Of a stretch of DNA of 64,000 bases, positions 18,747-64,000 are shown in pieces (within the stretch, counting starts at the first letter, position 1; the number at the start of each line of letters is the position of its first letter). This DNA is from Candidatus Ozemobacteraceae bacterium. GTDB taxonomy: Bacteria > Muiribacteriota > Ozemobacteria > Ozemobacterales > Ozemobacteraceae. The stretch lies in contig OZ223236.1 in NCBI GenBank assembly GCA_965140445.1, positions 3,714,498 to 3,778,497 on the forward strand, written 5' to 3'. The translations under genes and the position numbers were made by a program. The notes under the pieces are model-generated. The model saw only the letters and a list, made by a program, of their open reading frames with translations. It did not search any database and was not told the origin of the DNA.

Positions 18747-18765
18747 TTTAAAAACTTACAGAATT

Positions 18766-19628: not shown

Positions 19629-21473
19629 ATGAAAAACATAATCAAACTAATAACAACGTTCTTTTTTATAACTATAATAATACCCGCTTTTGCAGAATTC
19701 AAAAAGCAACAATTTTTGCTGATTGAGGATCAGGAATCTAAAACCTCTCAACAAATTTCATATAACATTGAAAAAGCCATGTCGGGCGCAAGCTTATCAA
19801 CAAGAAGGCTTGAGAAAAAACAATTGCTGGACTTTTCTTTTAACGATATTTCCTCTTTTACCGGAATTATTTTCACCAGCGACTCCTGCCCTGACTATCT
19901 TTATGGACCAGATGCTAAAAATTTCGTTTTAGATGGTGGAATTCTTTGCTTTGCCCACCAGTATTATTCGCAAGAGTATATAAGTGATTTTGGCGTATCT
20001 CTAGAATCTGGAGAATCAGATGCAATCTATGAAGATGCTCGGGGAGTAAAAAGCCTTAAGCCCATTTTTAACGATGAATATTTTGAAATGGCAAAAGAGG
20101 GGTTTACGACTGGGAGGATCAAGCTCTCTTTTTCAGCTGAATGGGAAACTGTTCTTAATTATATCAACCCGGAAAATTCGCTGCTTTTAACACGAAGATT
20201 TGGAAAAGGAAGCATAATTTATTGGAACTCCTCTTGTTTGACATCCAAACTTTTTAGAGGAATATTCCTTTTCACCCTTTTGAAGTCTCTTCCTATTTCA
20301 GCCATGAGCGTTCACAATGCTTTTTTAATGCACATCGACGATTCACCACCTCCAGCCTATGGAATAATGGAAGGACCTGTAGCTAGAGATTTTGGAATGA
20401 AGGACTATGACTTCCACAAAAGAGTCTGGGCTAAGGAAGTCCTACCTATGCTTGATGCAGCTGGCATAAAGCTCACCCATTTTTTAACTTTTGCTTATGA
20501 TGGAAAAATTAAAGGGCCTTTTCTAAAACAAAGCGATAGAGAGCCATTTTTCTCCGAATTTCTTAACATATTAAGAAAAAGGGGCGATGACTTTGGGTTC
20601 CATGGATACAACCATCAATCTCTTACAATTGGCCATAGTCCATCAACCCCGTGGAAAAGCCTTGATGAAATGTTGGATGCAGTAAAAGCGGGCTACAAAA
20701 TCTGGCAGAAACTGGGACTACCCCCCACCCTCTGCTATGTTCCACCAAATAATGTAATAGATAAGCATGGCAAATTAGTCTTATCAGAAGGTTTTCCAAG
20801 CATAAGAGTTATTTGCCGAGTTTACAAAGACTATGATAATGATCATTTCGCAAAAAAATCCACTGGTTATATTGCAGGACTTGGAAAAGTTGACAGCAAA
20901 GTAATGAAGAAAATTTATAGTCTTTATGCAAGCCGAAAAGCCATGACTTCACCCAAAGCGAGAGAATATTTTAATGGCGATGAATTTGGATTAGACCCAG
21001 AAGTTCCAAAATTTCTTGACCTGCCAAGATTGTCCAGTGGACACTTTTTGACTGAATATGAAAAACTTCAGATTTTAAATGGAATAATGGCTCACGGAAT
21101 TGCGGTTCATTTTTTTCATCCTGATGACATATATGACCCCGCCAGACGTGAAAAGAACTGGGAATATACTCTTTCATCATTAAAAAGGCTTTTACTTTTC
21201 TTTTCAAAGAATTTTGGTTTCGCACGAAAGTTACATACTTCAAAATTTGTTCAGGATTTTAAAAAATACGTTTTTGGAAACTCGAAAATCTTTTCAAATG
21301 GCGAAACAAAGTTAAAAATTCAACAAAAAGGCAGAAGATTTTACTACTTGTTCAGGCGTGACGCTTCAAATATTGCACCTAAAATCACTGGAGGAAAAAT
21401 AATAGCCGAAGTTGAAAAAGGTAAAATTTTCCTCATCGAGCTTAAAAGCCAGGAAGCAAACATAGAAAACTAA
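19629..21473 (+). CDS. Secreted PelA-like polysaccharide deacetylase (CE4-like) protein, paralog 2.
   Basis: 614 aa with signal peptide MKNIIKLITTFFFITIIIPAFA. Conserved LMHIDDSPP and FHGYNHQSL. Collinear with paralog 1 along its whole length. Confidence 0.55.
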   Translation: MKNIIKLITTFFFITIIIPAFAEFKKQQFLLIEDQESKTSQQISYNIEKAMSGASLSTRRLEKKQLLDFSFNDISSFTGIIFTSDSCPDYLYGPDAKNFVLDGGILCFAHQYYSQEYISDFGVSLESGESDAIYEDARGVKSLKPIFNDEYFEMAKEGFTTGRIKLSFSAEWETVLNYINPENSLLLTRRFGKGSIIYWNSSCLTSKLFRGIFLFTLLKSLPISAMSVHNAFLMHIDDSPPPAYGIMEGPVARDFGMKDYDFHKRVWAKEVLPMLDAAGIKLTHFLTFAYDGKIKGPFLKQSDREPFFSEFLNILRKRGDDFGFHGYNHQSLTIGHSPSTPWKSLDEMLDAVKAGYKIWQKLGLPPTLCYVPPNNVIDKHGKLVLSEGFPSIRVICRVYKDYDNDHFAKKSTGYIAGLGKVDSKVMKKIYSLYASRKAMTSPKAREYFNGDEFGLDPEVPKFLDLPRLSSGHFLTEYEKLQILNGIMAHGIAVHFFHPDDIYDPARREKNWEYTLSSLKRLLLFFSKNFGFARKLHTSKFVQDFKKYVFGNSKIFSNGETKLKIQQKGRRFYYLFRRDASNIAPKITGGKIIAEVEKGKIFLIELKSQEANIEN

Positions 21474-45445: not shown

Positions 45446-46645
45446 ATGCGATATAGATTTTTTATGCTATCAGCGCTGCTCTCAATGCTTTTTTTCTCAG
45501 CAACTTTATCTGCCAATCCTTTTTCAGAGGAAGAAATTTTCGTTCCGGTGAATGTTCAGATTGAACAACCAGCATCCGAAATAGAATCAGCTCAAGTAGC
45601 TTCTTTTACCACAATTGAAACGCTTGTCGCCTCCGATTCATTGTCTTTGTGGAAAGATCTTCAAAAACTCTATGGAACCCTGGGAAAACGTACAGGCAAA
45701 CAAAACACCCACAGCGACAGCGAAAACGCCGTAGAACACCATTTAGATGGGTATGACAACTTAGATATTGATATTGATGGTGATAACTACTGCGGACAAT
45801 TTGCAATGAGCACGCTGCTAAACGGCATGGGAATTGAAACTGACCCGCAAAAAGTTTATCAGGAATCCAACCCGGCTGGCATTTTCACCGCGCCACCTAC
45901 AATTGTAGAATATTTGCGTATGAACGGCATAAAAGCCAAAATGAAAAACCAGGCCTCGGTTAACGATATAGTTAAACGTATTGATGATGGAAAACCTGTT
46001 ATGGTTCTTGTTGATTCAGGCGATGGCATCCCCCACTGGATTTGTATTACTGGTTATGACACCGATGATAAAGGCAATGTAACATCTGTTAGGATGCGTG
46101 ATTCATACTGGGGAACCAGAGGTCCACACACAATGAGCATCAGCGACTTTGAAAAAGCATGGAAATCACCATTTGGCAGTGGAACCCTTAGCAGTCTTGT
46201 AAGCTATTCAAATCTACTGATTGATAATTATGGAACTTATCCACCAAACTCAACCCCTCCAATTTATCCGGGCACATTTGACACTGCAACCGAAGACAAT
46301 ATGGCATCAGGTATTAACGATGTGGTTAATGGCTGGAAAAACCACTCAGTATCCAAAGTTATCGGTGGTGCTTCCAAATTACTTCTGGGTCTTCCAGGAG
46401 CAATTGGCGGCGTAGCTTCTAATTTTGCAGATAAAACAAGTCAGAATTGGATGGAATGGGGCCGAAATAAGATGGGTGAAAACGGTCTTGGAAACAAGAT
46501 CCTTGGCGGCGCAGCTTTTGCAGGCGGAGCAATAACTAATACCGTAGCCAAAGCAGGAAAAGCAGTCTCCAACCTTTGGTCCAGCCAGGTTTCAATCATT
46601 GGAAATGGTATTAAAAAGCTTGGTTCTCTTTTTTCAAGAAACTAA
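45446..46645 (+). CDS. Secreted Peptidase_C39_2-like (papain-fold) domain protein with glycine-rich C-terminal tail.
   Basis: Signal peptide MRYRFFMLSALLSMLFFSATLSANPF. Catalytic Cys context DNYCGQFAMSTLLNGMGI. His context IPHWICITGYD. The last ~110 aa are a G/A/N-rich low-complexity tail (GGASKLLLGLPGAIGGVASN...GGAAFAGGAITN). Confidence 0.5.
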   Translation: MRYRFFMLSALLSMLFFSATLSANPFSEEEIFVPVNVQIEQPASEIESAQVASFTTIETLVASDSLSLWKDLQKLYGTLGKRTGKQNTHSDSENAVEHHLDGYDNLDIDIDGDNYCGQFAMSTLLNGMGIETDPQKVYQESNPAGIFTAPPTIVEYLRMNGIKAKMKNQASVNDIVKRIDDGKPVMVLVDSGDGIPHWICITGYDTDDKGNVTSVRMRDSYWGTRGPHTMSISDFEKAWKSPFGSGTLSSLVSYSNLLIDNYGTYPPNSTPPIYPGTFDTATEDNMASGINDVVNGWKNHSVSKVIGGASKLLLGLPGAIGGVASNFADKTSQNWMEWGRNKMGENGLGNKILGGAAFAGGAITNTVAKAGKAVSNLWSSQVSIIGNGIKKLGSLFSRN

Positions 46646-47014: not shown

Positions 47015-50000
47015 TTAATTTCCTATGCAATACCCCTTTAATCTTGCCAGAAGATTAACTTTATTCATTTGCTCTATTGAGTTTACTGAAGTGCTGAAAA
47101 GGTCTGGATTACCAACAATTATCGCCAGGGCCTGAGCTCTTGAAATTGCCACATTAATTCTATTTTTATCAAAGATAAAATCAATGCCTCTGGGTGATTC
47201 TGAAGGATCACTTGTGCATAAACTGAAAAAGACTACAGGCGCTTCCTGTCCCTGAAATTTGTCCACGCTTCCAACCTTGGCGAATTCGCCAAGAGCTAAT
47301 TTTAGCTTATTCACCTGATGGTTGTAGGGAGCAACAAAAAGCATATCATTCCAATCTATAGCTTTCTCGGCACCATGTTTATCAACATAAATTCGACCAA
47401 GAAGCTCATTGGCTTTTTTAGCAATTAACTCCGCTTCTTCATCACTGGCCTGAGTATTTCCCTCATGTTCAACTGGAATAAAAATGATCCCGGCAGACCT
47501 GTCCAGCTCTCCAACATATCCTTCTGGAACCTGAATTTTCTGTTGATCATTTTCTGGTGAGGATTTTAACTTTCCTTCATATATAGCTTCACTAATATAA
47601 TCATTTACAGAAGAATGCATTCTGTAGGTTGTGCCCAGAAAAACACCCATATTATCTGGAATAATTGGTGATTCGTGCAAAAGGAAATCCAGGATTGATA
47701 ATCCGCTATCTTCAGGATGAATGCCTTGTGATGGCTGGCCAAGTTGCATTTGGTCACCCATTAAAACCAGATTTTCAGCAGAACGACTCATACCAACCAG
47801 ATTTGCAACAGCAACCTGCCCGGCTTCATCAATAAACAAGTAATCAAACTGCTTTTCCCAATCAGTTCTACAGAAACCCCAGGCCGTAGTTCCAACAACA
47901 CAACCGTCCTGCAGCTGCCCAAGAATATCTGCATTCTTCAGAACCGAGATTCCATTTTCCTCAATTTCCGGCCCGGTATTTTTGGAACAAATACATTGAG
48001 CCGATATATTGTTTTCCCTACAATGCCGAGCAACACCAATAAGAAGATTATTAATCGCTTTATGGCTATTACTTGAAATCCCAATTCTTTTCCCGAGACT
48101 AACAAGTTCAGCAATTATGTGCTTCCCGGTGTAGGTTTTGCCAGAACCGGGCGGCCCCTGAATGGTCAGATAACTGTTGTCTAAATTTACGACAGCTGAA
48201 ACAATTTCCTTCAATCTATCAGAAGGATTTTCGCAATTTACAACTGGTTTTTGAGAATCAATTCGACCCTTGATACGAGGGGGATTTCGATGCAAAAAGT
48301 CACCAATTGCAGTGCCCTCGAATTTACCAAATTCATAATCCGTTACCACCGCGTCTATTGATTGTGGGATAGGATCGGGCCTGATGTATTCATCTGGGAT
48401 TAAAGTTAAAATCTGGGGAAGGTCAGAACCAGAAGTTACTACAAGTTTTCCCTTTGAAAGGTCACTTTCCTCATCTAACAACGCCGCCCTTAAAAAGTTT
48501 CCCTTACTGTCCTCTTCTCCTACCACATAATAGTTTTTTGCGTTTGCCTTGAACTCCTGCTCCGGATTAAATTTGTATTCATAGGCAAGGTTTCGTGACC
48601 TGGGTTTAGGCTTAAAAGGTTCCCTTGAAGTTCTTATGCAACCTGCAAGACAATCAATATCATTAACAAGTTCTTCAACTTCAAGACCGATTCTATCAAA
48701 TAATCTCCAGAAAACCGGCTTTGCTTCGCGACGATGGAATTCCAATGTCCAGGCAAGGTTTTCAGAAATCCGTGCTTTAGTTCTATCTTCTTTTGAAGCT
48801 CTTTCAAGAAGTTTATCGCGAAGCTTTGTGCGATTAGTAACCTCTTCAGGGAGTTCAGGCTCCTCGGTTTCCACTTTTCCAATAAACTGGATTCCATTAC
48901 TTTGCTGCTGTTCTCTTAACCATAAAACTAATTCCTGTGTAGAGTTACAATCATCAATATTGTAGTCTCTTATATCCTTTAAAACCTTTGAGGTTTGCCA
49001 GGTGTCGCCGTCTAAACCATTTCTGGAATTTTCACGCCACTCTTCATAAACCACAACAGAATCACCACCACAACCAACTTCGGTTTCTCTCTTGCCTCGG
49101 TAGAGGTGTTCCACATTTTTAATTGAATATCTTGGCTCACCGACCAGCAATGCACCTTTAACGACTTTATACAAATCCACAAAAACTTCGTTTCTGAGTA
49201 ACTGATCAACCTCAAATTCACAAACTCCATATCTGCTCATAAGCTTTCTACAAGCAGCTATCTCATAATTTGCATAATGATATATGTGCATAGTTCTATC
49301 TTTTTCCCAGAGTCCATAAACCCATGCAATAAATTCTTGAAAAGCCTTTTTTTCCTGTATTCTGTCGTGAGCCCAGAAATCCTTAAATTGTCTGTTTCCA
49401 TTCTCATCAACAAAAGTGCATCCCCATAAGTATTCCAATCCCCCATCATCCAATGGAAATCCCTCAATATCAAAAAACACATCATTGTCCGAATGCGGGG
49501 GAAGTAATGCCAAACCAATCTTTCTACCTTCCGGGTGGTCCTTAACTTCAAACAGAGGCGGAATTCTGCCTGCGCTTCTCTTCTGGATGGATGCCTGAGC
49601 CTTAATATTATCAAAGGTTGCCATGCTCAACCCGGAAATGCGTTGTACGTTTGAACTGATTAAAGCTTCACATGTATATATGCCGGCTTGATTAAGCTTT
49701 TTCACATTGGATCGGGTAATATTTGCGATTTGCGACAGGTGATCCCTTTCCTGTAATATTTTCTCTGCGTAGGTTCCCCATGCACCAAAGCTTCTCGAAT
49801 CGTATGGGTCCGGCATTTCTTTCGGATTAAAATTACTTTGCTCGTGCAGAAATCTTTCTTTTAAGGCCAGGTAATAAAAAAAGTAATCGTCAGTTTTTAA
49901 CTTCTCAATATCGCCTCTGCCAAGAGCTAAAGTTATTGTTTTTGGTCTGGAACCCTGAACGGACTCCAAAATGTCAGAATAGCAACAAAGCTGAGTAACA

Positions 50001-50449
50001 AACTCAGGTCTGGCTCTTGATGCAAGTTTTGTATCAATTACCTCATACAAATAATCTCCAAAACGACTGGAACCTGGCACCTTAATAAGAAAATCGGCAA
50101 ATCCACGAAATGAAAATGCTTCAAGAACTCCCTGAAAAATTATATCAACTCCACTTTCCATGGCACTCAGGGTTTTAAGCAGTCGCTGCTCAACCTTTTG
50201 TTCGCTGGATTCCCCATCGCCTGACAAATCTGCAATGGTTTTCCCTTGTTCCTCAAATTCCTTTAATAATTTTTTCTCCAGATCCAATCCTTTTTTTGCC
50301 AGTAAACCTGACAAATCATCAGCTGGATCAGCTTGTGGAACTAAATCCGGATGCTCCATTCGTAACCGATTCATCCAACTCGCAAAAGGGCTTACCATGA
50401 AAGTTGTTAAATCAGTTGGAGAGTATACAATCTCATTTCTTTTAAACAT
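47015..50449 (-). CDS. Fusion of a TM0106-family RecB-like PD-(D/E)XK nuclease, an RNase-H-like domain and an SF1B (Upf1/Dna2-like, AAA_11/AAA_12) helicase.
   Basis: Track ORF starts at a TTG (50536). The ATG at 50449 has the RBS GGGGAAAAA-ATG, giving 1144 aa. Nuclease motifs GFADFLIKV and YEVIDTKLASRARPEFVTQLCCYSD (D...E-x-K). Central region YLWGCTFVDENG...MHIYHYANYE. Helicase motifs: Walker A GPPGSGKT, motif II FIDEAGQV, GDQMQL, TYRMHSSV and VDKFQGQEAPVVFFSL. Confidence 0.75.
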   Translation of the reverse strand: MFKRNEIVYSPTDLTTFMVSPFASWMNRLRMEHPDLVPQADPADDLSGLLAKKGLDLEKKLLKEFEEQGKTIADLSGDGESSEQKVEQRLLKTLSAMESGVDIIFQGVLEAFSFRGFADFLIKVPGSSRFGDYLYEVIDTKLASRARPEFVTQLCCYSDILESVQGSRPKTITLALGRGDIEKLKTDDYFFYYLALKERFLHEQSNFNPKEMPDPYDSRSFGAWGTYAEKILQERDHLSQIANITRSNVKKLNQAGIYTCEALISSNVQRISGLSMATFDNIKAQASIQKRSAGRIPPLFEVKDHPEGRKIGLALLPPHSDNDVFFDIEGFPLDDGGLEYLWGCTFVDENGNRQFKDFWAHDRIQEKKAFQEFIAWVYGLWEKDRTMHIYHYANYEIAACRKLMSRYGVCEFEVDQLLRNEVFVDLYKVVKGALLVGEPRYSIKNVEHLYRGKRETEVGCGGDSVVVYEEWRENSRNGLDGDTWQTSKVLKDIRDYNIDDCNSTQELVLWLREQQQSNGIQFIGKVETEEPELPEEVTNRTKLRDKLLERASKEDRTKARISENLAWTLEFHRREAKPVFWRLFDRIGLEVEELVNDIDCLAGCIRTSREPFKPKPRSRNLAYEYKFNPEQEFKANAKNYYVVGEEDSKGNFLRAALLDEESDLSKGKLVVTSGSDLPQILTLIPDEYIRPDPIPQSIDAVVTDYEFGKFEGTAIGDFLHRNPPRIKGRIDSQKPVVNCENPSDRLKEIVSAVVNLDNSYLTIQGPPGSGKTYTGKHIIAELVSLGKRIGISSNSHKAINNLLIGVARHCRENNISAQCICSKNTGPEIEENGISVLKNADILGQLQDGCVVGTTAWGFCRTDWEKQFDYLFIDEAGQVAVANLVGMSRSAENLVLMGDQMQLGQPSQGIHPEDSGLSILDFLLHESPIIPDNMGVFLGTTYRMHSSVNDYISEAIYEGKLKSSPENDQQKIQVPEGYVGELDRSAGIIFIPVEHEGNTQASDEEAELIAKKANELLGRIYVDKHGAEKAIDWNDMLFVAPYNHQVNKLKLALGEFAKVGSVDKFQGQEAPVVFFSLCTSDPSESPRGIDFIFDKNRINVAISRAQALAIIVGNPDLFSTSVNSIEQMNKVNLLARLKGYCIGN

Positions 50450-50756
50450 TTTTTCCCCGCATCTTGCAAATAAATGTGCATAACCTATATGCGTCCGAAG
50501 ATCCCAGTTTATACATTTAAATATAGGATTCTTCAAAAGTTATTGTGCTCTTAACTTAACTTTTTATCAAGAGTGAAAAGAATAATACACTTTTAAATAT
50601 CCATTATTACTAAATCGCTAATATTAATGATGCATGGAATCATTTATTAACACGATGTGTTATACTTGAGATGTTGGAACTTTATGGTTCTGGTATTGGG
50701 ACTCCTTGAACAACCAGCATCTGAAATTGCAATAATTGAGAAACTTAGGAGCCAAT

Positions 50757-50918: not shown

Positions 50919-50944
50919 TTAATTAACCCGCATCTAATAATAAA

Positions 50945-50997
50945 AACAGGCAAATATCATTGCAAAAAAACGTTTCAATGATGATGCCTGTTTTTTG
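50945..50997. terminator. Bidirectional intrinsic terminator, for the small ORF (+) and the pilin operon (-).
   Basis: aacaggca...atcattg / caatgat...tgcctgtt hairpin followed by T6. On the minus strand it is followed by TTTTTATTAT. Confidence 0.55.
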
Positions 50998-51004: not shown

Positions 51005-51673
51005 CTAGAAAGGCTGGGCTTTAACGTATAAATTCTTTTTTAAAGTTTCAACAAGGGGTCTTTTAATCGAAACATTTGCTGGCGGGCGAAGTATAAACGA
51101 CATATTTAACATTGCCCCGGAAACCTCTTCATCAGAAGGATCTATTGCACCTTCAAGAACGTATTCATACCCTGTTTTTTTTGAGTAAACCACTGTTTTG
51201 GCTTCAACCTCTACCCTATCAACATCTGTTAGTTCAACAGATTGAGGCAATAGCTTATAATCTGGTGGATTCCCGGCAATTTTAGTTCGTGAATATGTTA
51301 ATTTCCGGTTTTTAAGAATCAAAGAGCATAGAATCTGATATTCAATACTGCCATCATCGTTGAAATGATTTCTGGTAAATTCCAGAAGCTCTGGTCCCAG
51401 TCCGTTAGAATTGTAGCTTAGTGGGCAATCGTCTATGGTTGGCAATGGATCACCTGCAACAACCTGAATTCGCCTTGATGCCTCACCCAAATCATCTTTC
51501 AAAAGCTTGATAAGGTATTGTAACTTTCGGGAATGCTCCTGTTTCCAAGCCGAAATCATATAGACTCTACTACTGGAACTTTGCAGACGATAGATTACCA
51601 GCATAACCAAAACCATCAGGCTAACCCCGATGAGTAACTCTACCACGGTAAAAGCTTTATTGTAACGTTTCAC
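51005..51673 (-). CDS. Pilin/pseudopilin-like protein with atypical prepilin N-terminus (AFTVVELLIG).
   Basis: 222 aa. MKRYNKAFTVVELLIGVSLMVLVMLVIYRL has a class III signal-like N-terminus with Ala instead of the usual Gly at -1 and a conserved Glu at +5. Confidence 0.5.
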   Translation of the reverse strand: MKRYNKAFTVVELLIGVSLMVLVMLVIYRLQSSSSRVYMISAWKQEHSRKLQYLIKLLKDDLGEASRRIQVVAGDPLPTIDDCPLSYNSNGLGPELLEFTRNHFNDDGSIEYQILCSLILKNRKLTYSRTKIAGNPPDYKLLPQSVELTDVDRVEVEAKTVVYSKKTGYEYVLEGAIDPSDEEVSGAMLNMSFILRPPANVSIKRPLVETLKKNLYVKAQPF

Positions 51674-52218
51674 AATGAATACCTGTCGATCTGCACCAGC
51701 TCTTCATACTTTCTCATTGTATCTTTGTAACGAACATCTATTTTTATCCTTAAAAAGTCTCTTTCATATCCACCAACGCTTTTTTTAATTAGATTGCAGC
51801 CCCTGACCCATGCTGAATAATTATTTTTCCCAGAATCGGGCAAACTATCTATATAAACAGTCCCCAGGCCTTTTAAATCAGTATGTTCCAGTGGAATATT
51901 CAAGCTATCCAATTTGCAGAAATCCATATACCAGCTGTTAATAAATATGTCTGCCCCCTGCACTGCTTTTCCGGCAACAAGTTCTTTGTGATAAGCATCT
52001 GTCTTATAAAAGGCTGAGGGCAAAAGCTTCAATTTAAAGAGTAACAGTTGAGCAAGCCCCTTCGCTACCCAATCTGCCTTTCGATGCTGGTCAATCTGGG
52101 TTAGGCTTTTTTTCTGGCTGTTGTAACGCAAAAACAAAGTAGAACTTAATGACGCAAACAGCGCACCAAAAATAATCACCATAATCAAAGCTCCACCATT
52201 TTTATTCAGTTTAATCAT
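51670..52218 (-). CDS. Minor pseudopilin-like protein (GspK/PilX-like, lacks Glu+5).
   Basis: 182 aa. N-terminus KNGGALIMVIIFGALFASLSSTLFL. Overlaps its neighbours by 4 nt. Confidence 0.35.
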   Translation of the reverse strand: MIKLNKNGGALIMVIIFGALFASLSSTLFLRYNSQKKSLTQIDQHRKADWVAKGLAQLLLFKLKLLPSAFYKTDAYHKELVAGKAVQGADIFINSWYMDFCKLDSLNIPLEHTDLKGLGTVYIDSLPDSGKNNYSAWVRGCNLIKKSVGGYERDFLRIKIDVRYKDTMRKYEELVQIDRYSL

Positions 52219-52219
52219 T

Positions 52220-52804
52220 TCAAGTTCCCAAATCTGCTATACAGGTAGATAGAATAAACTTTCTTTCTGATTTTCCTTGAATACATGTAACCGTAGCCCA
52301 AATTGTAAAAATTTCTTCAGTGGTAGTGTATTTTGCAGTAAAGGTTGAAACACTGGCTCCAATGCCACCTTTGTAACCACATTTCCCATAATTAAAAATG
52401 GTGGAAACCCCATCTGCCTCACCCGCGATCCTTTTTAACTCCACCTTTATAAAATAATCAGCATTACTGCCCTGATGATTTAATTTAACTCCTTTGAAGG
52501 AAGGCTTTTCGGTTCCAACTGGCAAATCAAAAGTTCTGGAAACTGCTTCGCCGGGAAATTTAATATCCATCTTCACAACCTGATTTGAAGAAAAAGCATC
52601 AGAAAGAGTGGTAAATCTGGTCGTTTTTATTGTGTTTAATGCTGAATCTGCAAGGTTTAATGCAAAACCTTCATCCATTTGTCGATTAGTTAAGCCATAG
52701 GATTTTATTAAAACATCAAGGGTTGGCAAAAGCGTTATCCCTGCTATCAGAATGGCTACAAGAATTTCAATAAGTGTAAATCCAGAATTACCCTGAGAAG
52801 CCAA
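52220..52804 (-). CDS. Type IV pilin / T2SS pseudopilin-like protein with canonical prepilin leader.
   Basis: 194 aa. MASQGNSGFTLIEILVAILIAGITLL is the canonical G-FTLIE N-methylation motif. Confidence 0.75.
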   Translation of the reverse strand: MASQGNSGFTLIEILVAILIAGITLLPTLDVLIKSYGLTNRQMDEGFALNLADSALNTIKTTRFTTLSDAFSSNQVVKMDIKFPGEAVSRTFDLPVGTEKPSFKGVKLNHQGSNADYFIKVELKRIAGEADGVSTIFNYGKCGYKGGIGASVSTFTAKYTTTEEIFTIWATVTCIQGKSERKFILSTCIADLGT

Positions 52805-52807
52805 TTT

Positions 52808-55231
52808 CTACCTCATATGCCTTTGTTCAAGCGTTCTTATTCGAGCTTTCTGATCCCTAATCTGAAAAAATAGACGTAGGGTTCGCGAATTACCCGCCAC
52901 ATCCTTTGCTATTACAGTTATAGAAGGATTATTATTGCTTAATGAAATTAGATCCGGAACTGAGCTACCATCGAACAGCTTCGAACTGGGATCACGGAAA
53001 ACAATTTTGTAAGGACCATGCAAACAGCTATTCCAGGCTTCAGTTGAAGAAATTGTCGGCTCAAATTCTGTGCTAGAACCGTTTTTACAACTAATCTTAA
53101 GCTCTTTTATCCCACTCCCCGGAGTGGAGTTGTAAGAATCTACAACAGCCTCAGGCATCCTTCCGCCCTCATTTGCAACATATCTTGAATTATCTTGAGT
53201 CCAGACACGTATCTCGTATTCCACATCTTCTTCAAGTGGAAAAACATTAAAAACATCCAGACTCTCGCCAAAGCCCAAGCGCTTTCTCAAAGAATCTGCA
53301 TTGCTTACATCCTGATTTAATTTTCCTGTTGTTTTTACCGTATCGCTTTCACCATAGTCTTCAAGTGAAAAAAGCTTCCGGAAGAATGAATTTTTCTGAT
53401 CTGCCCCAGAGGTTACCAACCCTTTAACAGTATTATCTGAACCAGCAAAAATTGCACTTCGGTTTTCTGAATCTCCTCCGGTTTCGCCCATTCTAATCTC
53501 GATGGGCATAAAGTAAACCGAATCTGTGGCGATAAACTCCTGATAATCAAAAAGCAACCCGGCAGTAAAATCCTGAAATTCACTTTTATTCCACATCCAG
53601 GATGGCACTGCTTTTTCAGGGGGTGGGAAACAAATATTATATTTTAAACTACTATCGCTTTTTGCCTTCTGCTTATCTTTCAGATTTACCACACTTATCA
53701 TAATGTTTGGACGGTCGTTGTCATAAAGTCTTATATAGCCCGTTTCTTGCGGTAAGTATGGACTTTCAACAGCTCTGTCTGTAGGAGGCAAATCTCCTGG
53801 AGCCATAAATGGAAACGGTTTGGCGGTAGGAGGATCAGTTAAAAGATCATCTCCGTATTTATAATTATGCCTTTTTCCAGATCCTGGTGCACAGACTCCG
53901 TAGCAATTCCATGGCTCATTATCTGCTACAAAGGAATCACTGGGATTCAGATTGTTTGAGCCATCCCATGCGTAGATTGAATATTCCATCGTTCCATGAA
54001 AGTGAGACGGCAATTGAATAGGATTTGGTGCAAGTCCTCTGCCAGACTTAGAAACATAGGTTTCATTTGCGAACTTACTAAATCGAAACTTCCCGTCACT
54101 GGAATTTTTTGCATCAAAGGTCCACGAAGCTGGCGCCAGTGCTATATTACAAGCAATACTATTGGCCCAAATGTTTTCATCGTAAAACTTAAGAGATAAT
54201 CTGCGAAAATCTCCTGTTGTGTTTCTAATTACTGAAACTCCATCCGTAGCATCTGCTGTTGGTAAATAACCATCTGTTGACTGAGTGTAGGTAGTAAAAT
54301 CCCTTATCTCCGGTGGAGTTCTATCGAGCCAATGTATCTGACCACCATTAGCTATATAATTGCTTGCGACGATTTCTTTATTCGCATCCCAACTTTTTCC
54401 CGAATGCATTATTGAGGTGGGTGAAAAAGAAACAAGGTATTCAACACGGGTGTTACTTCTGTTATGGCAACAGTATGTTCTGGTGTATGTGCTTCCATCA
54501 GAACGATGATATGTCCTGGTGTAACTATCACCATCACAAACGCATCTATGGCAATTAAAACTTGATTTACTACTTTCAACAAGATTCTGCCACTCTGATC
54601 CGGTAGTATACCACCAATCACTTCCAGAACCTAAATGAACGCTATAAACCTGCATCCCCGGATGGTCTGAAGTTGGCTCCAATTTGTATTCGGCACCAGC
54701 TCTTTCGATTCCCATGTAAGAATACATACAAAATGCAGTATCGCTATGACTATGTCCAACTCTGCCGCATCCAGAACAAGGCCAATTGTACAATGAATTC
54801 CAATCAGATTGGGAGCCGGAAAAATCAGCTGGCATCGCAGGTGGCTTTGAATGAATCCCATCACAAATTTCTATAAAAGACCCATCTCCCGGGTCCTTAA
54901 AAATATAGATTATTTGATTGCTGGAATATTTTTTCTTGAGACTATTTAACTGGGATTCGGTTAAATGACTTTTTGAGACATGAGCAGCAAAACTGCTATA
55001 TGAAACGACTTTTGCACCAGAAAGGAATAATTTCATAGGTATTTTTTCCACGTCCTCAAAAGTATCAATTCTCCAAGGTTGAGGAGTTTGGGAAAAATGA
55101 CCATTAAAATCAAAATATAAATGATTAAAAATCAGATTCTCAAGTGCTTTCTCGCTAGAAATGGCAGAAAAAGCTGCAATAGTATGAGAAAAAAGAAAAA
55201 ACAAAACGAGATAAGCTGTGACTCTTTTCAA
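52808..55231 (-). CDS. Large secreted Cys-rich protein encoded first in the pilin operon (candidate pilus tip/adhesin-type protein).
   Basis: 807 aa. Signal peptide MKRVTAYLVLFFLFSHTIAAFSA. Cys-rich block CSGCGRVGHSHSDTAFC...CHRCVCDGDSYTRTYHRSDGSTYTRTYCCHN with YTRTY repeated. No prepilin motif. 3-nt gap to the downstream pilin gene. Confidence 0.45.
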   Translation of the reverse strand: MKRVTAYLVLFFLFSHTIAAFSAISSEKALENLIFNHLYFDFNGHFSQTPQPWRIDTFEDVEKIPMKLFLSGAKVVSYSSFAAHVSKSHLTESQLNSLKKKYSSNQIIYIFKDPGDGSFIEICDGIHSKPPAMPADFSGSQSDWNSLYNWPCSGCGRVGHSHSDTAFCMYSYMGIERAGAEYKLEPTSDHPGMQVYSVHLGSGSDWWYTTGSEWQNLVESSKSSFNCHRCVCDGDSYTRTYHRSDGSTYTRTYCCHNRSNTRVEYLVSFSPTSIMHSGKSWDANKEIVASNYIANGGQIHWLDRTPPEIRDFTTYTQSTDGYLPTADATDGVSVIRNTTGDFRRLSLKFYDENIWANSIACNIALAPASWTFDAKNSSDGKFRFSKFANETYVSKSGRGLAPNPIQLPSHFHGTMEYSIYAWDGSNNLNPSDSFVADNEPWNCYGVCAPGSGKRHNYKYGDDLLTDPPTAKPFPFMAPGDLPPTDRAVESPYLPQETGYIRLYDNDRPNIMISVVNLKDKQKAKSDSSLKYNICFPPPEKAVPSWMWNKSEFQDFTAGLLFDYQEFIATDSVYFMPIEIRMGETGGDSENRSAIFAGSDNTVKGLVTSGADQKNSFFRKLFSLEDYGESDTVKTTGKLNQDVSNADSLRKRLGFGESLDVFNVFPLEEDVEYEIRVWTQDNSRYVANEGGRMPEAVVDSYNSTPGSGIKELKISCKNGSSTEFEPTISSTEAWNSCLHGPYKIVFRDPSSKLFDGSSVPDLISLSNNNPSITVIAKDVAGNSRTLRLFFQIRDQKARIRTLEQRHMR

Positions 55232-55311
55232 TTTAATTACTCCCGCTTCTTATAATGGCGATGCATACGAGAATAAAATTGAAAAAGTAACGCCGATTTA
55301 AAACTGTTAGA

Positions 55312-56709
55312 TTATTTTACTATTTTTCCTGGATTCAAAATATTTTTTGGATCAAAAACCATTTTAATCTGCTTCATAAGTTGAAGCTGTACCATTCCAG
55401 AAACAGTCTCCAGATATGGTTTCTTTGCAAATCCAATCCCATGCTCACCTGAGACCTGCCCACCCATCTCTTTTGCTTTAGCATAAAATCTATCAAAAGC
55501 TTTGTTTAAGCGGTCTATAAAAACAGGCTTGGAAAGATCGTCCCTGAGCATGTAAACATGAAGATTCCCATCCCCGGCATGACCAAAACTTCTGATTCTT
55601 ATCTGTTCTTCCGCCTCAACAATCTTTGTGAATTTAACAAAGTCAGCAACTTTATTGCGCGGAACAACCACGTCACATTCATCCATTTCTGTTGTAGAAG
55701 CCTTTATTGCTTCGAGAAAAGCTCCTCTGGCCGACCATATCATTTCCTGACGCTCCTGAGTGTCAGAAATAAGAATATCCAGCGCTCCCTTTTCTAAACA
55801 GATTTCTGCAACCTTTTCGTAAGCTTTTTCGATTTCTTCTCTGGACTGTCCATCAAAGGTTAAGAGCAAGTAGGCATCTGAAGAAGAATCGGGAAACTTC
55901 TTCCCCAAAAAGTCTTCGGAATTTTCTATTACAGCTCTCTCCATATACTCAATTGCAGTTGGAATAACCTTCGATTGAATTATCAACGGAACAGTTTCGA
56001 TTGCTTTGCCAAGATCGGGAAACGGAATCAATAGACTAATTGCTTTTCCGGGACGAGGAAGAAGGCGCAAGACTGCCTTGGTGACAATACCCAATGTTCC
56101 TTCGGAGCCCACGATTAAATCCTTTAAACTGTAGCCGGAACTATTCTTCACGACTTTCCCACCAAACCAGGTTACTTCACCTGTGGGCAAAACAACCTCC
56201 AGTCCTCTAACGTAATCTCTGGTAACTCCATATTTAACTGCACGCATTCCGCCAGCATTAGTATTTATATTCCCGCCGATTGAAGCACTTTTTTCTCCGG
56301 GATCAGGAGGATAAAATAAGTCATGGCTTTCAACAAATGCTGAAATTTCCATTAAAAGAACGCCCGGTTCTACTGTTAAAGTCAGGTTTTCCTGATCCAG
56401 CTCAATAATACTATTCATTCTGGCCGTGCTAAGCATTATTCCGCCGTGAACTGCGACCGAACCACCGACAAGTCCCGTGCCCTGTCCTCTGGGAGTAACA
56501 GGAATAGAATGTTGATTCGCGTATTTCAGAATATTCGATACTTCTTCGGTGCTGCCAGGGAAAACAAGTAATTCTGGATAGCTTTTTAAATCACCCAACT
56601 CATCATGGCTAAAATCCTCATGAATATTGCTGCCATCCATAACGTTTTCTGCACCGCAAATTGATTTTAAATAATCAATATCTTCTCTTGTTACTTTTTT
56701 ATAATTCAT
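55312..56709 (-). CDS. lctD: FAD-linked oxidase of the GlcD / D-lactate dehydrogenase family (LctD-like).
   Basis: 465 aa. FAD-binding PCMH-type N-terminal domain ([11 protein letters not shown]). Overlaps etfA by 4 nt. Confidence 0.8.
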
Positions 56710-57896
56710 ATTCGCAGTCCATTTTTTTCAATCTTTTTAATAAGCGCAGGAACTACTTCGTAAATATCTCCTACCACAGAAAAATGTGCTACTTCAAAAA
56801 TAGGGGCATTTGGATCACTATTAATTGCAATTATATTATCTGCGCCTTGCATTCCGGCTGAAAATTGAACTGAGCCAGAAACTCCGCAGGTTATTATAAG
56901 CTTTGGTTTAACCGTTCTACCACTAAGCCCGATTTGAGATCGGGAGTCAAACCATCCCTGCTCGATTAGTGGGCGGGTTCCTGCAACCATTGCCCCAAGC
57001 GAATCTGCCAAAGTATAAATCATGTTCAGGTCAGCTTTTTTCTTTAAACCCTTTCCCACAACAACAATTGTTTCAGCATCTTCGATAGATTTAACCTTCT
57101 CTTTAGGCTTAACTTCAAGAACTTCGATTGCAGACTCAAGCTTAGAAGGCTCTAATGAGCACAATTCAATTCTTCCTTCTGGTTTGCATTTTTCTGGAGG
57201 ATTAAAAATTTTGTAGCGAACTGTAGCAAATTGTGGCCTGTGATTGGGGGTGTGGATGTGAGCCATAATATTGCCACCATAAGCAGGCCTAATCTGGTCA
57301 ATGTCCGTATTTTCAGCCACATCCAGCAGAGTACAATCAGCCGTCAGACCAGTTCTGAATCTTGCCGCAAGACGGGGAGCGAGAGATCTTCCTATTGGGG
57401 TACCTCCAACGAGAATACTGGACGGTTTAATCTTGTTAATAAAATCCTCAAATGCAGCTGAATAAGGCTCAATTCTAAAATACTTAAGCTCTGGATAGTC
57501 ATAAAAAAGAATTCTATCGACCCCATACTCAAGAAGCTCTTGAGCAACAGAAAGAAGATTTTGCCCTATTAACAAACAATAGACAGGTTGAGAAATTTTT
57601 CCTGCCAACTCTTTCGCTTTGCCGATAAGCTCAAGAGAGACGGGATGTATCTTACCTTCGGTTTGTTCTACATAAATCGCGATACCCTTCCATAGACTTT
57701 TATCCACAGAGTTTAAAACAGCCTCATCTATCCATTGAAAAACATCCGGGCGTTTTATTACACAAGCTTTGCACATGCGGCAACCAGAATCAATTTCCAG
57801 CTTCCCGTCCACACAAACAATAGAGTTAAATGGACAAATTTCAGCCAGCTTTTTGGGGTCTTCTCCTGGAACAGGCATAATCTTTATCATACTCAT
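56706..57896 (-). CDS. lctC: Electron transfer flavoprotein alpha subunit with N-terminal [4Fe-4S] ferredoxin domain (LctC-like).
   Basis: 396 aa. N-terminus [11 protein letters not shown]...GCRMCKACV gives cluster ligands. C-terminal EtfA region [28 protein letters not shown]. Confidence 0.85.
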
Positions 57897-58681
57897 AAAA
57901 ACTTGAGCTCCAGCAATTTGTCATAAATCTTTTCAGACAACTCTTCAGAACTGCCTTTCCAAATCTGTTTTCTTAAATTAGTTTCAGGAGGAAAAACTTT
58001 TAAGACCTGAGTTGGTGATCCTTTTAGCCCATATTTTTCTGGTTCAGAATCTGGAAGATCTGCTAGTCCAAGTCTCTTTACCTTTTTGTCTTTTGCTGCC
58101 AATTTCCGTTTGAAAGAAGGTAGCCGAGGCTGGAAAATCCCTTTTTCAACAGTAATTAAGCACGGGAAACCAACCTTTACTATCTCAACAGTTTCTGGCA
58201 TGTCCATTTCAAGAACTAATTCCGCTTCATTTGCATCAATTATTCTTCGAACATTTGCCACATGGGGAATTCCAAGAAATTCAGCAATCTCAGGGCCGAC
58301 CTGACCAGTGTCTCCATCGGTTGTTTGTCTTCCACAAATTATTAGATCCGGGAGGCCTAAAGAAACAATTCCCTGAGACAGTGCATAAGAAGTCGCTAGA
58401 ACATCTGCTCCAGCAAAGCTTTTATCGCTTAATAAAACGCCATCATCTGCTCCAAGCATGAATGTTTCACGCAAGGCAATTTCTGTTTGCGGTGGTCCCA
58501 TGCTGATAGCACACACCTTTGCATCTAGTGATTCTTTAAGTCTTACAGCTGTTTCCAGGGCATAAAGATCGTAGGGATTAATTTTAGAATCAACCCCTGC
58601 TCGCTTAAGAGTCTTGGTTTCTGGATCAATGTCAACTTCTGTGCTATCCGGAACTTGTTTTATGCAAACAAATATATTCAT
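57893..58681 (-). CDS. lctB: Electron transfer flavoprotein beta subunit (LctB-like).
   Basis: MNIFVCIKQVPDSTEV is the canonical EtfB start. Start placed at the second Met (58681); the track start at 58699 adds MHYNIC. Confidence 0.85.
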   Translation of the reverse strand: MNIFVCIKQVPDSTEVDIDPETKTLKRAGVDSKINPYDLYALETAVRLKESLDAKVCAISMGPPQTEIALRETFMLGADDGVLLSDKSFAGADVLATSYALSQGIVSLGLPDLIICGRQTTDGDTGQVGPEIAEFLGIPHVANVRRIIDANEAELVLEMDMPETVEIVKVGFPCLITVEKGIFQPRLPSFKRKLAAKDKKVKRLGLADLPDSEPEKYGLKGSPTQVLKVFPPETNLRKQIWKGSSEELSEKIYDKLLELKFL

Positions 58682-58762
58682 ACAGATATTGTAATGCATT
58701 CCGGATCAAAATTTCATTAGAATTGAAAATTAAATTTCTTCTTTTTAATATATTAAAATAAT

Positions 58763-62171: not shown

Positions 62172-62861
62172 TTAATTAATTCTATTTCCTGGGCTAGTCT
62201 TTAAAGCTTCATACAAGGCAAAGCTATCAAACAATAATTTTTTAAACCCACCCGGCTCAATTCTTTTCCCCAGGTGAAAAACCATTATTCTGTCAGCAGC
62301 TTCGAACTGGATATTTTCATCTTTGAGCGATACAAATCTATTACGCAATCTCTGGTTAAACAATTTTCGAACCAAAGCCTCATTATCACCCTGCAGGACG
62401 AAAGCATCAGAAAAGTTCTTGTCCTCTGCAAAATTGATGTCCTGGCCACCAAAAAGCTTACCAAGAAAATCAAACAATCTGATCTCTTTGCGCAAAAAGC
62501 ATCTGGGAAGAGACAGATCTGGTGACTCCAGCAAGCACACGCTTTGGATGTGAGTCTGACTGTTTTTGCCATGTCCGGTAACGTATGAATATTCCGCAAT
62601 AATAATTTCAACGTTATCTTTACTGCCAATTAAGCAATTTCTCGCTCTTCTACTTCGGCCAGTGCTAAATAGCTTGAGCTTTTCGAACTTTTGAAAAATC
62701 CCATTGGAATATTCTATATACTTAAAGCCCGTGCTGCTGGATATTTTTTTCCAGCCTTCTCTTCGCTTTTTATCCATTATCTGGGAATAAATAAAGGCAA
62801 TAACGGCTAAAACAATAAAAAAACCAAAACCGCAATAAAGGATTAATTCACTTTTATCCAC
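62172..62861 (-). CDS. Membrane-anchored hypothetical protein, tandem paralog A.
   Basis: 229 aa with N-terminal TM. Shared core ...YSYVTGHGKNSQTH...FDFLGKLFGGQDINFAEDKNFSDAFVLQG...KDENIQFEA. Confidence 0.5.
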   Translation of the reverse strand: MDKSELILYCGFGFFIVLAVIAFIYSQIMDKKRREGWKKISSSTGFKYIEYSNGIFQKFEKLKLFSTGRSRRARNCLIGSKDNVEIIIAEYSYVTGHGKNSQTHIQSVCLLESPDLSLPRCFLRKEIRLFDFLGKLFGGQDINFAEDKNFSDAFVLQGDNEALVRKLFNQRLRNRFVSLKDENIQFEAADRIMVFHLGKRIEPGGFKKLLFDSFALYEALKTSPGNRIN

Positions 62862-62879
62862 TATATCTCCTGCAATAAA

Positions 62880-63665
62880 CTATGCTTGATCGTTCTGTCT
62901 GGCTTTTATAGCATCAAAAATGGCAAAGCTATCAAAAAGCATTTTCTTAACTTCATTTGGCTGAATATATTTGCCCCGGTGAAAAATCATTGTATTACCA
63001 AGAGCTTCAAATTGGATATTTTCATCTTTAAAACTGCTGAAACGATTGCGAACTTGTTGGTTAAACAGGTTTCGAACGGCACCTTCATCTTCCCCCTGTA
63101 AAACAAAAGCGTCAGAAAAAGTTTTATCTTCCGCAAAGTTAATGTCCTGCCCACCAAAAAGTTTTCCAAGAAAATCAAAAAGCTTCACTTCTTTTCTTAC
63201 AAAACAATGCGGAATAGACAGTTCAGGGCTGGAAAGCAAGCATAGGGTCTGCATATGCGTAGTGCTGTTTTTTCCGCTGCCAGTGACATAAGAATAGTCA
63301 GCTAAAACGATTTCCACTTCTTCTTTCGAACCACGTAGACAGTTATAAACATCATGCCTTCTACCTTTACTGAACAGCTTTAGTTTGGAATAGGTAGATA
63401 AAATCTCTGGTGCTTTCTCGTAATATTCAAAACCTGTGCTTGCGGCAATTTTTCGCCAGGCCTCTTTTCGTTTCTTTTCCTGAAGCCATGCATAATAGAC
63501 CAACCCTACAATAAAAATCAAAACTCCTATAAATATTGCTACACCTACAAAATCTTCACTCATAAGCCCTCCAAAAAGTTTTGCTTCTAAATTTAAACTT
63601 CCATCAAAGTAAAAAAATGCGCCAGAGTAACATCCATCAAAACCTCTGTTAACATAATGATACAA
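62880..63665 (-). CDS. Membrane-anchored hypothetical protein, tandem paralog B.
   Basis: 261 aa. >70% identical to paralog A over the C-terminal 200 aa, with long identical nucleotide runs. Confidence 0.5.
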   Translation of the reverse strand: MYHYVNRGFDGCYSGAFFYFDGSLNLEAKLFGGLMSEDFVGVAIFIGVLIFIVGLVYYAWLQEKKRKEAWRKIAASTGFEYYEKAPEILSTYSKLKLFSKGRRHDVYNCLRGSKEEVEIVLADYSYVTGSGKNSTTHMQTLCLLSSPELSIPHCFVRKEVKLFDFLGKLFGGQDINFAEDKTFSDAFVLQGEDEGAVRNLFNQQVRNRFSSFKDENIQFEALGNTMIFHRGKYIQPNEVKKMLFDSFAIFDAIKARQNDQA

Positions 63666-63672
63666 AATTTTT

Positions 63673-64000
63673 CTATTGAGCGATATTTTCTTTTAAAGCC
63701 TCCACAATTTCAAGGCCATTTGCCAGCATTTGAGGCATTTCAGCTGGTTCAATAAATCGGCTATAATGAAAGAGAACAACATCCTCAAAAGCCTCAAATC
63801 TAATATCTTCCTTCTTCAGGCTTACGAAACAATTTCTCACCTTTTGTGAAAAATAGGTTTTAACATCATATTCATCCGAACCTTTCAAAATAAAATCGCT
63901 TGAAAAAGCAAAATCATTTTCAAAGTTAATATCCTGCCCGCCCAGAATTTTTATCAGATAGTCTAGCCCCAACGCCTCAGGCAACAAATTGCATCTTGGC
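63673..64000 (-). CDS. Tandem paralog C; partial, N-terminus beyond the window end.
   Basis: GGQDINFENDFAFSSDFILKG...EDIRFEAFEDVVLFH aligns to the middle and C-terminus of paralogs A and B. The reading frame stays open to position 64000. Confidence 0.45.
   Translation of the reverse strand, partial: PRCNLLPEALGLDYLIKILGGQDINFENDFAFSSDFILKGSDEYDVKTYFSQKVRNCFVSLKKEDIRFEAFEDVVLFHYSRFIEPAEMPQMLANGLEIVEALKENIAQ

Follow-up and report, generated by a model that had tools for sequence, protein, structure and literature searches.

A conserved cassette of three pilin-like proteins and a large secreted protein as a candidate type IV filament tip module

A four-gene operon in the window, the 64-kb stretch of DNA analysed here as a whole, encodes a large protein with a Sec signal peptide (BIG) followed by three small pilin-like proteins and, as judged from sequence comparison, is one copy of a conserved cassette found in several bacterial phyla. 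We lean towards the reading that the operon specifies a tip or priming module for a type IV filament, which could be a pilus or a T2SS-like pseudopilus, and that BIG probably rides on the tip of this filament. BIG itself is best read as a functional counterpart of the PilY1/PilC family, to which it shows no detectable homology; this role is suggested by its layout and by its pilin partners.

Results

Operon structure and surroundings

All four minus-strand ORFs occur in the order and at the coordinates originally predicted (Table 1), with gaps of 3 nt and 1 nt at the first two junctions and an overlap of 4 nt at the third. The BIG gene is preceded by a ribosome-binding site (GGGAG at 55244–55240, 8 nt 5′ of the start codon), and just upstream of the 80-nt intergenic region lies a weak sigma-70-like match (55338–55311; promoter scan) that agrees at 9/12 positions and does not rise above chance. 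At the other end of the operon, the hairpin that follows the J-like gene (–23 kcal/mol, z –3.35 against shuffles) was missed by a consensus terminator scanner because of its long loop. Homologues at 64–71% identity on metagenomic contigs, together with distant positional homologues in other phyla, indicate that the four genes are real and not chance ORFs.

Table 1. Features of the operon and its flanks (positions within the window; slash, end of the leader)
Feature	Position	Strand	Basis
BIG gene, 807 aa, TTG start	55231..52808	minus	ORF and translation
I-like gene, 194 aa, MASQGNSG/FTLIE	52804..52220	minus	ORF and translation
K-like gene, 182 aa, MIKLNKNGG/ALIMVII	52218..51670	minus	ORF and translation
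J-like gene, 222 aa, MKRYNKA/FTVVELL	51673..51005	minus	ORF and translation
Terminator-like hairpin and U-tract directly 3′ of the J-like gene	50936..50994	minus	RNA fold
80-nt intergenic region 5′ of the BIG gene	55232..55311	minus	sequence

A Pfam search of the other large ORFs of the 64 kb agrees with the original prediction that no gene for an ATPase, platform protein, secretin or prepilin peptidase lies nearby. Neither a major pilin nor a fourth minor pilin of the FimU/GspH type was found within the 64 kb, and a regex search of all six frames revealed no further class-III signal peptides in the window. The filament itself is thus not seen, because the 64 kb hold no major pilin and no assembly machinery. 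The operon is neighboured by genes for a GlcD-type oxidase and a helicase, and a Pel polysaccharide operon is located 30 kb from the cassette. Scans of the window against Rfam and for tRNAs gave no match, and nothing significant came from a PHROGs search.

Three pilin-like proteins of the I, K and J classes

The evidence supports the assignment of the three small proteins as pilin-like members of the I, K and J minor-pilin classes. Each begins with a class-III signal peptide: G/FTLIE in the I-like protein, G/ALIMV without Glu5 in the K-like protein, and A/FTVVE in the J-like protein. These are the features that had been proposed for them, namely a GFTLIE prepilin, a GspK/PilX-like protein lacking Glu+5 and an AFTVVELL leader with Ala at –1, and all could be read in the translations; the Ala at –1 recurs in J-like orthologues. 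Pfam N_methyl was matched by the I-like protein above threshold (1.7e-6), and by the J-like protein just below it (7.8e-4). Over its N-terminal 55–64 residues, the I-like protein also matched the NCBIfam models for PilV (6.6e-7; 29.9 bits versus a cut-off of 52.2) and GspI (5e-5; 23.7 bits versus 44.35), both under the curated cut-offs, with T4aP PilV giving its best NCBIfam score. The NCBIfam GspK model was matched by the N-terminal 54 residues of the K-like protein (9.1e-4; 18.8 bits versus a cut-off of 130) and by 4 of the 16 members of its family (best 1.2e-6). The K-like leader follows the pattern (K/R)G(V/I/G/S)A(L/I) typical of GspK, and G8 and A10 are invariant in the family alignment. 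With 182 residues set against the 307 positions of the GspK profile, the K-like protein lacks the GspK alpha-domain; it is presumed to be the top subunit of a minor-pilin cap. The class assignments are to be read in the light of scores that stay under the curated NCBIfam equivalog cut-offs for GspI, GspJ, GspK and PilV (family-wide best E-values about 1e-6), and of matches to the curated I, J and K models that mostly cover the N-terminal helix. When profiles of the four families were searched against PDB sequences, only weak matches to pilin N-terminal helices resulted. For the J-like protein, which scores 17.3 bits against the NCBIfam GspJ cut-off of 64.85, structure modelling gave a pilin fold of the GspJ/PilW type that superposes best on XcpW, EpsJ and GspJ; the concern that the small proteins might lack pilin folds does not hold for this one.

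The large protein

By the same kind of comparison, BIG is a member of an uncharacterised protein family, and a rare one, with 55 cluster representatives among 1.84 billion. It has no sequence match in Pfam, NCBIfam or the PDB, and the family profile matched no PDB sequence. The comparison with PilY1 that the original prediction had suggested came out negative, as the PilY1/PilC beta-propeller (PF05567, IPR008707) was matched by none of 42 family members (Pfam, E≤0.01), nor was a catalytic or toxin domain detectable in these 42. An AF2 model of BIG, built on an alignment of only 3 sequences, reached a pLDDT of 26 and a pTM of 0.17; the same 3 proteins were all that the 42-sequence family alignment retrieved in a word-indexed protein search.

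Following a Sec signal peptide with predicted cleavage after AFSA (by eye), the N-terminal region of BIG (residues 1–295) is variable, with a mean consensus fraction of 0.24, whereas the C-terminal ~500 residues (296–807) are conserved (0.39). Conservation reaches the very last residues (0.51–0.55), and the C-terminal region is characterized by the motifs DRTPPxI, DNDxPNI, RLEDYxxSDT and EDVEY..W.DDNVKW, and by a near-invariant tail, IRxLExKH. The Cys-rich YTRTY-repeat block that had been described in BIG stands in part. Among its 807 residues BIG has 15 Cys, of which eight fall in the stretch 152–255, and the triad C227/C230/C232 is aligned as Cys in 37–38 of 42 family members. The repeat, by contrast, amounts to two YTRTY copies within a hypervariable basic linker of the N-terminal third, and is lineage-specific, being absent even from 53%-identical homologues. 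Comparison of the family profile with itself revealed no internal repeats, which rejects a repeat architecture detectable by sequence.

A cassette conserved across phyla

The genomic context of distant BIG members was examined by a genome-contig scan with a family sub-alignment. Thirteen additional loci share the order BIG-I-K-J and 2 others have BIG-I-K; their sources are Riflebacteria, Melainabacteria and other MAGs. Neither of the two metagenome-contig scans gave a match. Each pilin of the window matches its positional counterpart alone: the sole match of the I-like protein in the Riflebacteria cassettes is their first pilin (E 1e-13 to 5e-11), and that of the K-like protein in other cassettes is the middle pilin gene (E about 1e-14). 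Such position-specific matches indicate that the cassette is real. The placement of the large gene first is the rule for this cassette. Of the original proposal of a minor-pilin priming or tip module, the pilin classes and the link to the large protein, now seen across phyla as expected of such a module, are upheld, whereas its status as a one-off is not. We also considered a gsp operon fragmented by misassembly, which the original prediction had named as a possible source of error; this is ruled out by the recurrence of the same four-gene unit, without gsp neighbours, in independent assemblies.

The linkage of BIG to pilins is not obligatory, since downstream of the gene in its two closest homologues (52–53% identity) lie genes for an asparaginase and a methyltransferase rather than pilins. 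Many distant paralogues also stand alone, some of them sharing a MAG with a cassette copy, as in RUG334 (locus L019 with L025 and L033) and Avigastranaerophilus (L020 with L024). The closest homologues of the trio lie on contigs (L003 and L005) that break inside the I-like gene, so that within this lineage the linkage of BIG to the trio is shown for the window only. In other phyla, the Riflebacteria cassettes are flanked by genes for a TPR protein and a GAF-nucleotide cyclase, and the Melainabacteria cassette by one for a GAF-HD-GYP protein. These GAF-enzyme neighbours are reminiscent of PilY1, which is linked to second-messenger signalling (PMC8806160).

Discussion

Comparison with known minor-pilin systems

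A close parallel in design is provided by the PilY1/PilC systems (FimU-PilVWX in Pseudomonas and Myxococcus, PilHIJK in Neisseria), in which minor pilins, including one without Glu5, are likewise encoded beside a very large non-pilin protein. The multiple BIG copies in one genome parallel the paralogues PilC1/PilC2 and PilY1.1-3. BIG shares the signal peptide and the pilin adjacency, kept in conserved synteny, and its variable N-terminal and conserved C-terminal regions follow the arrangement described for these large proteins (bioRxiv 10.64898/2026.09.18.752573). Its C-terminus is conserved to the last residues, like that of the PilC plug, which beta-augments PilK (PMC7541494; bioRxiv 10.64898/2026.09.18.752573), albeit with an unrelated tail sequence. 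The cassette differs in holding three pilins rather than four, with no FimU/PilH/GspH type, in placing the large gene first with the order I-K-J, and in its flanks in other phyla, where TPR and GAF-cyclase genes take the place of pilE or fimS/algR.

The same three pilin classes form the T2SS tip GspI-GspJ-GspK (PDB 3ci0, 2ret, 3nje; XcpGHIJK model 9a1f), and the K-like protein resembles GspK in its leader and in lacking Glu5. Unlike the T2SS tip, the cassette has the order I-K-J instead of I-J-K, scores under the equivalog cut-offs, lacks adjacent gspG, gspH and gspC-F, and co-encodes a large secreted protein. Another four-gene cassette, Verru_Chthon A-D (TIGR02596-TIGR02600), combines prepilin-type proteins with a large partner and is repeated in bacteria of the PVC group; our literature search found no paper on its architecture. 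Three of 15 J-like proteins show a weak N-terminal match to Verru_Chthon protein C, but the J-like protein of the window scores 15 bits against the TIGR02599 cut-off of 256.5 and BIG has no match to these models. The big-protein-first order does differ from fimU-pilVWXY1E and gspGHIJK, as the original prediction pointed out, yet has a precedent in the cyanobacterial genes hpsA-D (PMC6495340, PMC4284469).

A possible mechanism

As a tip or priming module, the operon would depend on other parts of the genome for the motor, platform, secretin, prepilin peptidase and major pilin. The peptidase would process the three small proteins, which could then form an I-J-K-type cap with the Glu5-less K-like subunit on top, as in the GspK-GspI-GspJ and PilHIJK complexes. 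BIG would be exported by Sec to the periplasm, where its conserved C-terminal region may dock on the cap, and would thus be carried to the filament tip with its variable N-terminal region exposed, possibly as an adhesin or sensor. The near-invariant tail might bind the K-like subunit as the PilC/PilY1 'plug' binds PilK; the charges of this tail (+0.6) and of the K-like C-terminus (–0.75) are weakly complementary.

A bolder version, which we put forward tentatively and hold to be rather less probable, is that BIG founds an undescribed class of tip proteins, convergent with PilY1/PilC and wired to cyclic-nucleotide signalling via its GAF neighbours. Sec export, a variable outward N-terminus, a conserved docking region and a tail plugging a Glu5-less minor pilin would then have arisen in a protein unrelated to PilY1/PilC in sequence, and perhaps in fold. 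With such direct wiring in Riflebacteria and Melainabacteria, the cassette would represent a self-contained surface-sensing tip module.

Alternative explanations

The most serious competitor, which we nonetheless regard as unlikely, is a dedicated secretion cassette, in which BIG would be a T2SS-like cargo that is released, and the I, K and J proteins a cargo-specific pseudopilus tip pushing it through a secretin. Substrate contact is generally ascribed to the GspIJK tip, BIG resembles T2SS substrates in bearing a Sec signal peptide, and T2SS proteins figure both among the best family matches of the K-like and J-like proteins (GspK, GspJ) and as top structural matches (the pseudopilins XcpW, EpsJ and GspJ). 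However, the I-like protein scores best against a T4aP pilin, PilV, and the K-like protein is PilX-sized without the GspK alpha-domain. A variable N-terminus combined with conservation of BIG to its last residues is more readily expected of a docking subunit than of a free enzyme or toxin. No catalytic or toxin domain was detectable across the 42 members. Moreover, T2SS pseudopilin genes sit inside a gspC-O cluster with ATPase, platform and secretin genes, and no gsp genes were found nearby in the window or at the loci with scanned cassette flanks.

Improbable, in our estimate, is a polysaccharide or motility accessory like HpsA-D, with pseudopilins that adapt a T4P motor for polymer export and BIG as an envelope component instead of a tip adhesin. 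The hpsA-D genes have the same order, a protein of unknown function followed by three pseudopilins that are thought to work with a T4P motor encoded elsewhere (PMC6495340, PMC4284469). The cassette is carried by Melainabacteria, the sisters of Cyanobacteria, the I-like protein has weak N-terminal matches to HpsC and HpsB, and the window contains the Pel operon, though 30 kb away. These matches (HpsC 18.5 bits versus 200; HpsB 14.8 versus 150) leave the cassette outside the NCBIfam Hps models, none of which is matched by BIG, and unlike hpsA-D it has no glycosyltransferase genes beside it, either in the window or at the loci with scanned flanks. That BIG is functionally unrelated to the trio and adjacent by chance in this genome would suit its solitary distant paralogues and its two closest homologues, which have no pilin genes after them; such a coincidence is very hard to reconcile with a four-gene order kept in 13 other loci of distant lineages, with the position-specific homology of the pilins, and with gene spacing that suggests translational coupling.

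Significance

To our knowledge, large non-pilin proteins that functionalise pilus tips have so far been known mainly from the PilY1/PilC family, and the way in which such proteins are retained at the tip is just beginning to be understood. If the tip-module reading is true, BIG would represent a second family of this kind, unrelated to the first in sequence and linked to an I/K/J set, and the design of tip modules would be more general than PilY1. Three pilins and a single partner would make up a compact system suited to the plug model of tip docking, and a function would be gained for a protein family currently without annotation, present in this organism and in poorly known phyla such as Riflebacteria and Melainabacteria. 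The recurrent cyclic-nucleotide enzyme neighbours further suggest that tip contact may be linked to second messengers.

An operon of one secreted protein and three pilin-like proteins

Four closely packed minus-strand ORFs occur exactly where the original prediction placed an operon, and its three pilin leaders (GFTLIE, ALIMVII without Glu at +5, and AFTVVELL with Ala instead of Gly at –1) read identically in the translations. The first gene encodes a large protein with a typical Sec signal peptide (BIG), followed by a trio that we term I-like (GspI/PilV type), K-like (GspK/PilX type) and J-like (GspJ/PilW type). The first two junctions are gaps of 3 nt and 1 nt, and at the third the genes overlap by 4 nt; RNA folding places a hairpin and U-tract 3′ of the last gene (–23 kcal/mol, z –3.35), and the base composition of the operon is that of its surroundings. 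Pfam N_methyl is matched above threshold by the I-like protein and just under it by the J-like protein, and a six-frame regular-expression scan of the 64-kb window found no further class-III signal peptides. Pfam assigned the other large ORFs to a Pel-type polysaccharide operon, sensor kinases, an EtfAB/FAD-oxidase cluster, EF-G, an SF1 helicase and housekeeping genes; in keeping with the earlier claim that no machinery lies nearby, none encodes a filament ATPase, platform, secretin or prepilin peptidase.

Positions of the operon genes, other window genes and homologous loci (L numbers: contigs from the searches that hold BIG or trio homologues; slash: cleavage site)
Feature	Position	Strand	Description
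BIG	55231..52808	-	807 aa; TTG start; GGGAG site 8 nt upstream
I-like	52804..52220	-	194 aa; leader G/FTLIE
K-like	52218..51670	-	182 aa; leader GG/ALIMVII; no Glu5
J-like	51673..51005	-	222 aa; leader A/FTVVELL
Pel-type exopolysaccharide locus	8172-21473		PelB-like TPR, PelD-like GAF-GGDEF, PelF-like DUF3492-GT1, PelG; two DUF2194/DUF2334 proteins; GH114 hydrolase on opposite strand
Secreted protein	45446-46645	+	399 aa; Peptidase_C39_2-like domain; Gly/Ala-rich C-terminal region
Helicase	47015-50536	-	1173 aa; RNase_H_2-type nuclease and SF1 helicase domains (AAA_11/AAA_12)
Oxidase-Etf genes	55312-58699	-	FAD-linked oxidase (GlcD-like, from translated sequence), EtfA with N-terminal ferredoxin-like part, EtfB
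Tandem ORFs	62172-63987	-	three paralogues, 229, 261 and 104 aa; 104-aa ORF beside window edge
L001 BIG homologue	10001-12487
L002 BIG homologue	2865-5330
L003 contig start	1-25
L005 contig start	1-52
L004 contig start	1-57
L003 chemosensory cluster	1868-10507	-	two CheY-like receivers, two Cache-MCPs, CheW, CheB
L007 TPR protein	6430-8004		equivalents in L008, L011, L016, L018
L007 GAF-cyclase	12070-13698		equivalents in L008, L011, L016, L018
L020 TPR protein	5148-6647		Melainabacteria; upstream of cassette
L020 GAF-HD-GYP	11080-12918	-	adjoins cassette on other strand

Directly upstream of the operon, the oxidase-Etf genes look like an electron-bifurcating lactate/hydroxyacid dehydrogenase cluster; directly downstream, across an AT-rich spacer of ~470 nt, lies the helicase gene. 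The tandem ORFs share the motif FDFLGKLFGGQDINFAEDK.FSDAFVLQG behind an N-terminal membrane helix, and Pfam returned no match for the 229-aa member. A collection of 15 billion proteins contains the products of the other three operon genes, all from one 5.2-Mb record, yet lacks the exact K-like sequence; public annotation of that record may have missed the gene or assigned it another start.

Classes of the pilin-like proteins

None of the three small proteins reaches a curated NCBIfam cut-off, and their matches mostly cover the N-terminal helix; these sub-threshold matches are yet class-specific (I-like: PilV, E = 6.6e-7, and GspI, 5e-5; K-like: GspK, 9.1e-4; J-like: GspJ, 3.3e-3). Among orthologues gathered from other loci, GspK was matched by 4 of 16 K-like proteins (best 1.2e-6), and ComGF and GspJ by 12 and 4 of 15 J-like proteins, respectively (best 1.1e-6). 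The closest structural matches to the J-like model are XcpW (9.4), EpsJ (9.3), Thermus TTHA1219 (9.0) and ETEC GspJ (8.3), with the next hit at 5.9; the J-like protein is therefore a GspJ/PilW-type minor pilin and has the GspJ fold. By alignment, the K-like protein carries the marks of the GspK/PilX/PilK class, namely a basic leader, Gly, an Ala-Leu/Ile start and a missing Glu5, although it is far too short to hold the GspK α-domain. The Ala at –1 of the J-like protein is kept in close homologues and recurs in some J-like and I-like proteins of Riflebacteria, and so is a tolerated natural variant rather than an error. The three lie outside any gsp or pil operon and putatively act like GspI/K/J or PilV/X/W.

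Family and layout of the large protein

BIG matched nothing in Pfam, NCBIfam, PHROG or PDB sequences, and a word-indexed search of 5.8 billion proteins returned only BIG itself and two homologues at 52–53% identity. Among 1.84 billion cluster representatives, a full HMMER search picked out 55 relatives (E ≤ 1e-30 for 16), mostly of 700–800 aa and aligning over the C-terminal ~500 residues; nearly all family members begin with a signal peptide, and 0 of 42 near-full-length members has a Pfam domain, NCBIfam domain or PDB sequence relative. Conservation, taken as the mean fraction of sequences with the commonest residue, rises from 0.24 (residues 1–295) to 0.39 (296–807) and 0.51 in the last 47 residues. 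Family motifs include DRTPPxI, DNDxPNI, RLEDYxxSDT and EDVEY...W.DDNVKW, and a near-invariant IRxLExKH tail reaches the C-terminal end. The Cys triad C227/C230/C232 is present in 37–38 of the 42 members. The previously described YTRTY repeat is a duplication within a hypervariable linker, and even the closest homologues do not share it; profile self-comparison detected no internal repeats. Structure prediction of BIG gave a pLDDT of 26.

Conservation of the gene order

A genome-contig scan with the BIG family sub-alignment gave 28 loci, mostly from MAGs of Candidatus Riflebacteria/Rifleibacteriota/Ozemobacteraceae, with some from Candidatus Avigastranaerophilus (Melainabacteria) and other MAGs. 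ORF analysis showed 13 of these to hold BIG, a ~200-aa pilin (motif G/A-[VLI]-[TS]-L-[VI]-E), a ~180-aa Glu5-less protein and a ~230-aa pilin, in that order, so that the big-first arrangement, earlier contrasted with the fimU-pilVWXY1E and gspGHIJK orders, is the common one of this BIG-I-K-J cassette. L019, cut by a contig edge, and L020, where no J-like gene was found, show the order BIG-I-K. In phmmer comparisons, the window pilins matched only cassette proteins of the same position (I, ~1e-13; K, ~1e-14; J, ~1e-10); the four-gene unit is thus orthologous across very distant lineages.

More distant BIG paralogues (L024–L033) stand alone with no pilin genes nearby, in two cases in a MAG that also holds a cassette copy (RUG334, L019 with L025 and L033; Avigastranaerophilus, L020 with L024). 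Contigs L001 and L002, which carry the BIG homologues closest to the window protein, likewise show a stand-alone gene, with asparaginase and methyltransferase genes downstream in both. The contigs with the closest trio homologues (L003, L004 and L005, metagenomic, 64–71% identity) end within the trio or shortly ahead of it, two of them in the I-like gene, hiding what lies upstream. Linkage of BIG to the trio inside the window's own lineage is therefore seen in the window alone. A repeat at this place, or variation between strains, may lie behind these breaks.

The cassette of the Riflebacteria-type loci tested has a ~500-aa TPR protein ahead of it and a ~545-aa GAF-class III adenylate/guanylate cyclase behind it; no filament machinery was found in the cassette flanks scanned. 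Such cyclic-nucleotide signalling neighbours recur at cassettes in other loci, and the window is without them. In L003, the closest relative, the chemosensory cluster directly follows the trio on the opposite strand.

A proposed tip module

In the established picture, minor pilins of the I, J and K classes (PilV/W/X, PilI/J/K) form a complex that caps and primes type IV filaments, its uppermost subunit being the one that lacks Glu5 (PDB 3ci0 and 9a1f). PilY1/PilC, a large protein exported by Sec and not itself a pilin, occupies this cap in type IVa pili (PMC7541494). BIG has the same layout, a near-invariant C-terminal tail and co-inheritance with such a cap; we therefore propose it, by analogy, as the tip partner of the I/K/J cap and a functional counterpart of PilY1/PilC, in which case the machinery and major pilin would be encoded elsewhere. 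A simple check of charge complementarity between the BIG tail and the K-like C-terminus gave a weak signal. BIG fails PF05567, the one sequence-defining feature of PilY1/PilC, as well as the HpsA and Verru_Chthon models. It should be placed in a new family with a proposed PilY1-like role rather than filed as a PilY1. The minor-pilin trio and its conserved link to BIG are consistent with the original suggestion of a minor-pilin priming complex with a tip-located protein, in which the tip role is one that we infer.

Two other readings remain alongside the tip partner. BIG could be the cargo of a type II secretion arrangement, with the trio as its dedicated tip, or the four proteins could form an Hps-like accessory set for polymer export; hpsA-D has the identical big-first order (PMC6495340, PMC4284469), set against the failure of BIG to match HpsA. 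Orthology of the four-gene unit across very distant lineages makes a fortuitous adjacency of BIG and the trio very unlikely, and likewise rules out misassembly as the source of the operon. Overall, the cassette is best read as a tip module in which minor pilins are paired with a large protein of another kind, and its interest would rise if BIG turned out to be a tip protein of distinct structure, or if the connection with cyclic-nucleotide enzymes had a role in the cell.
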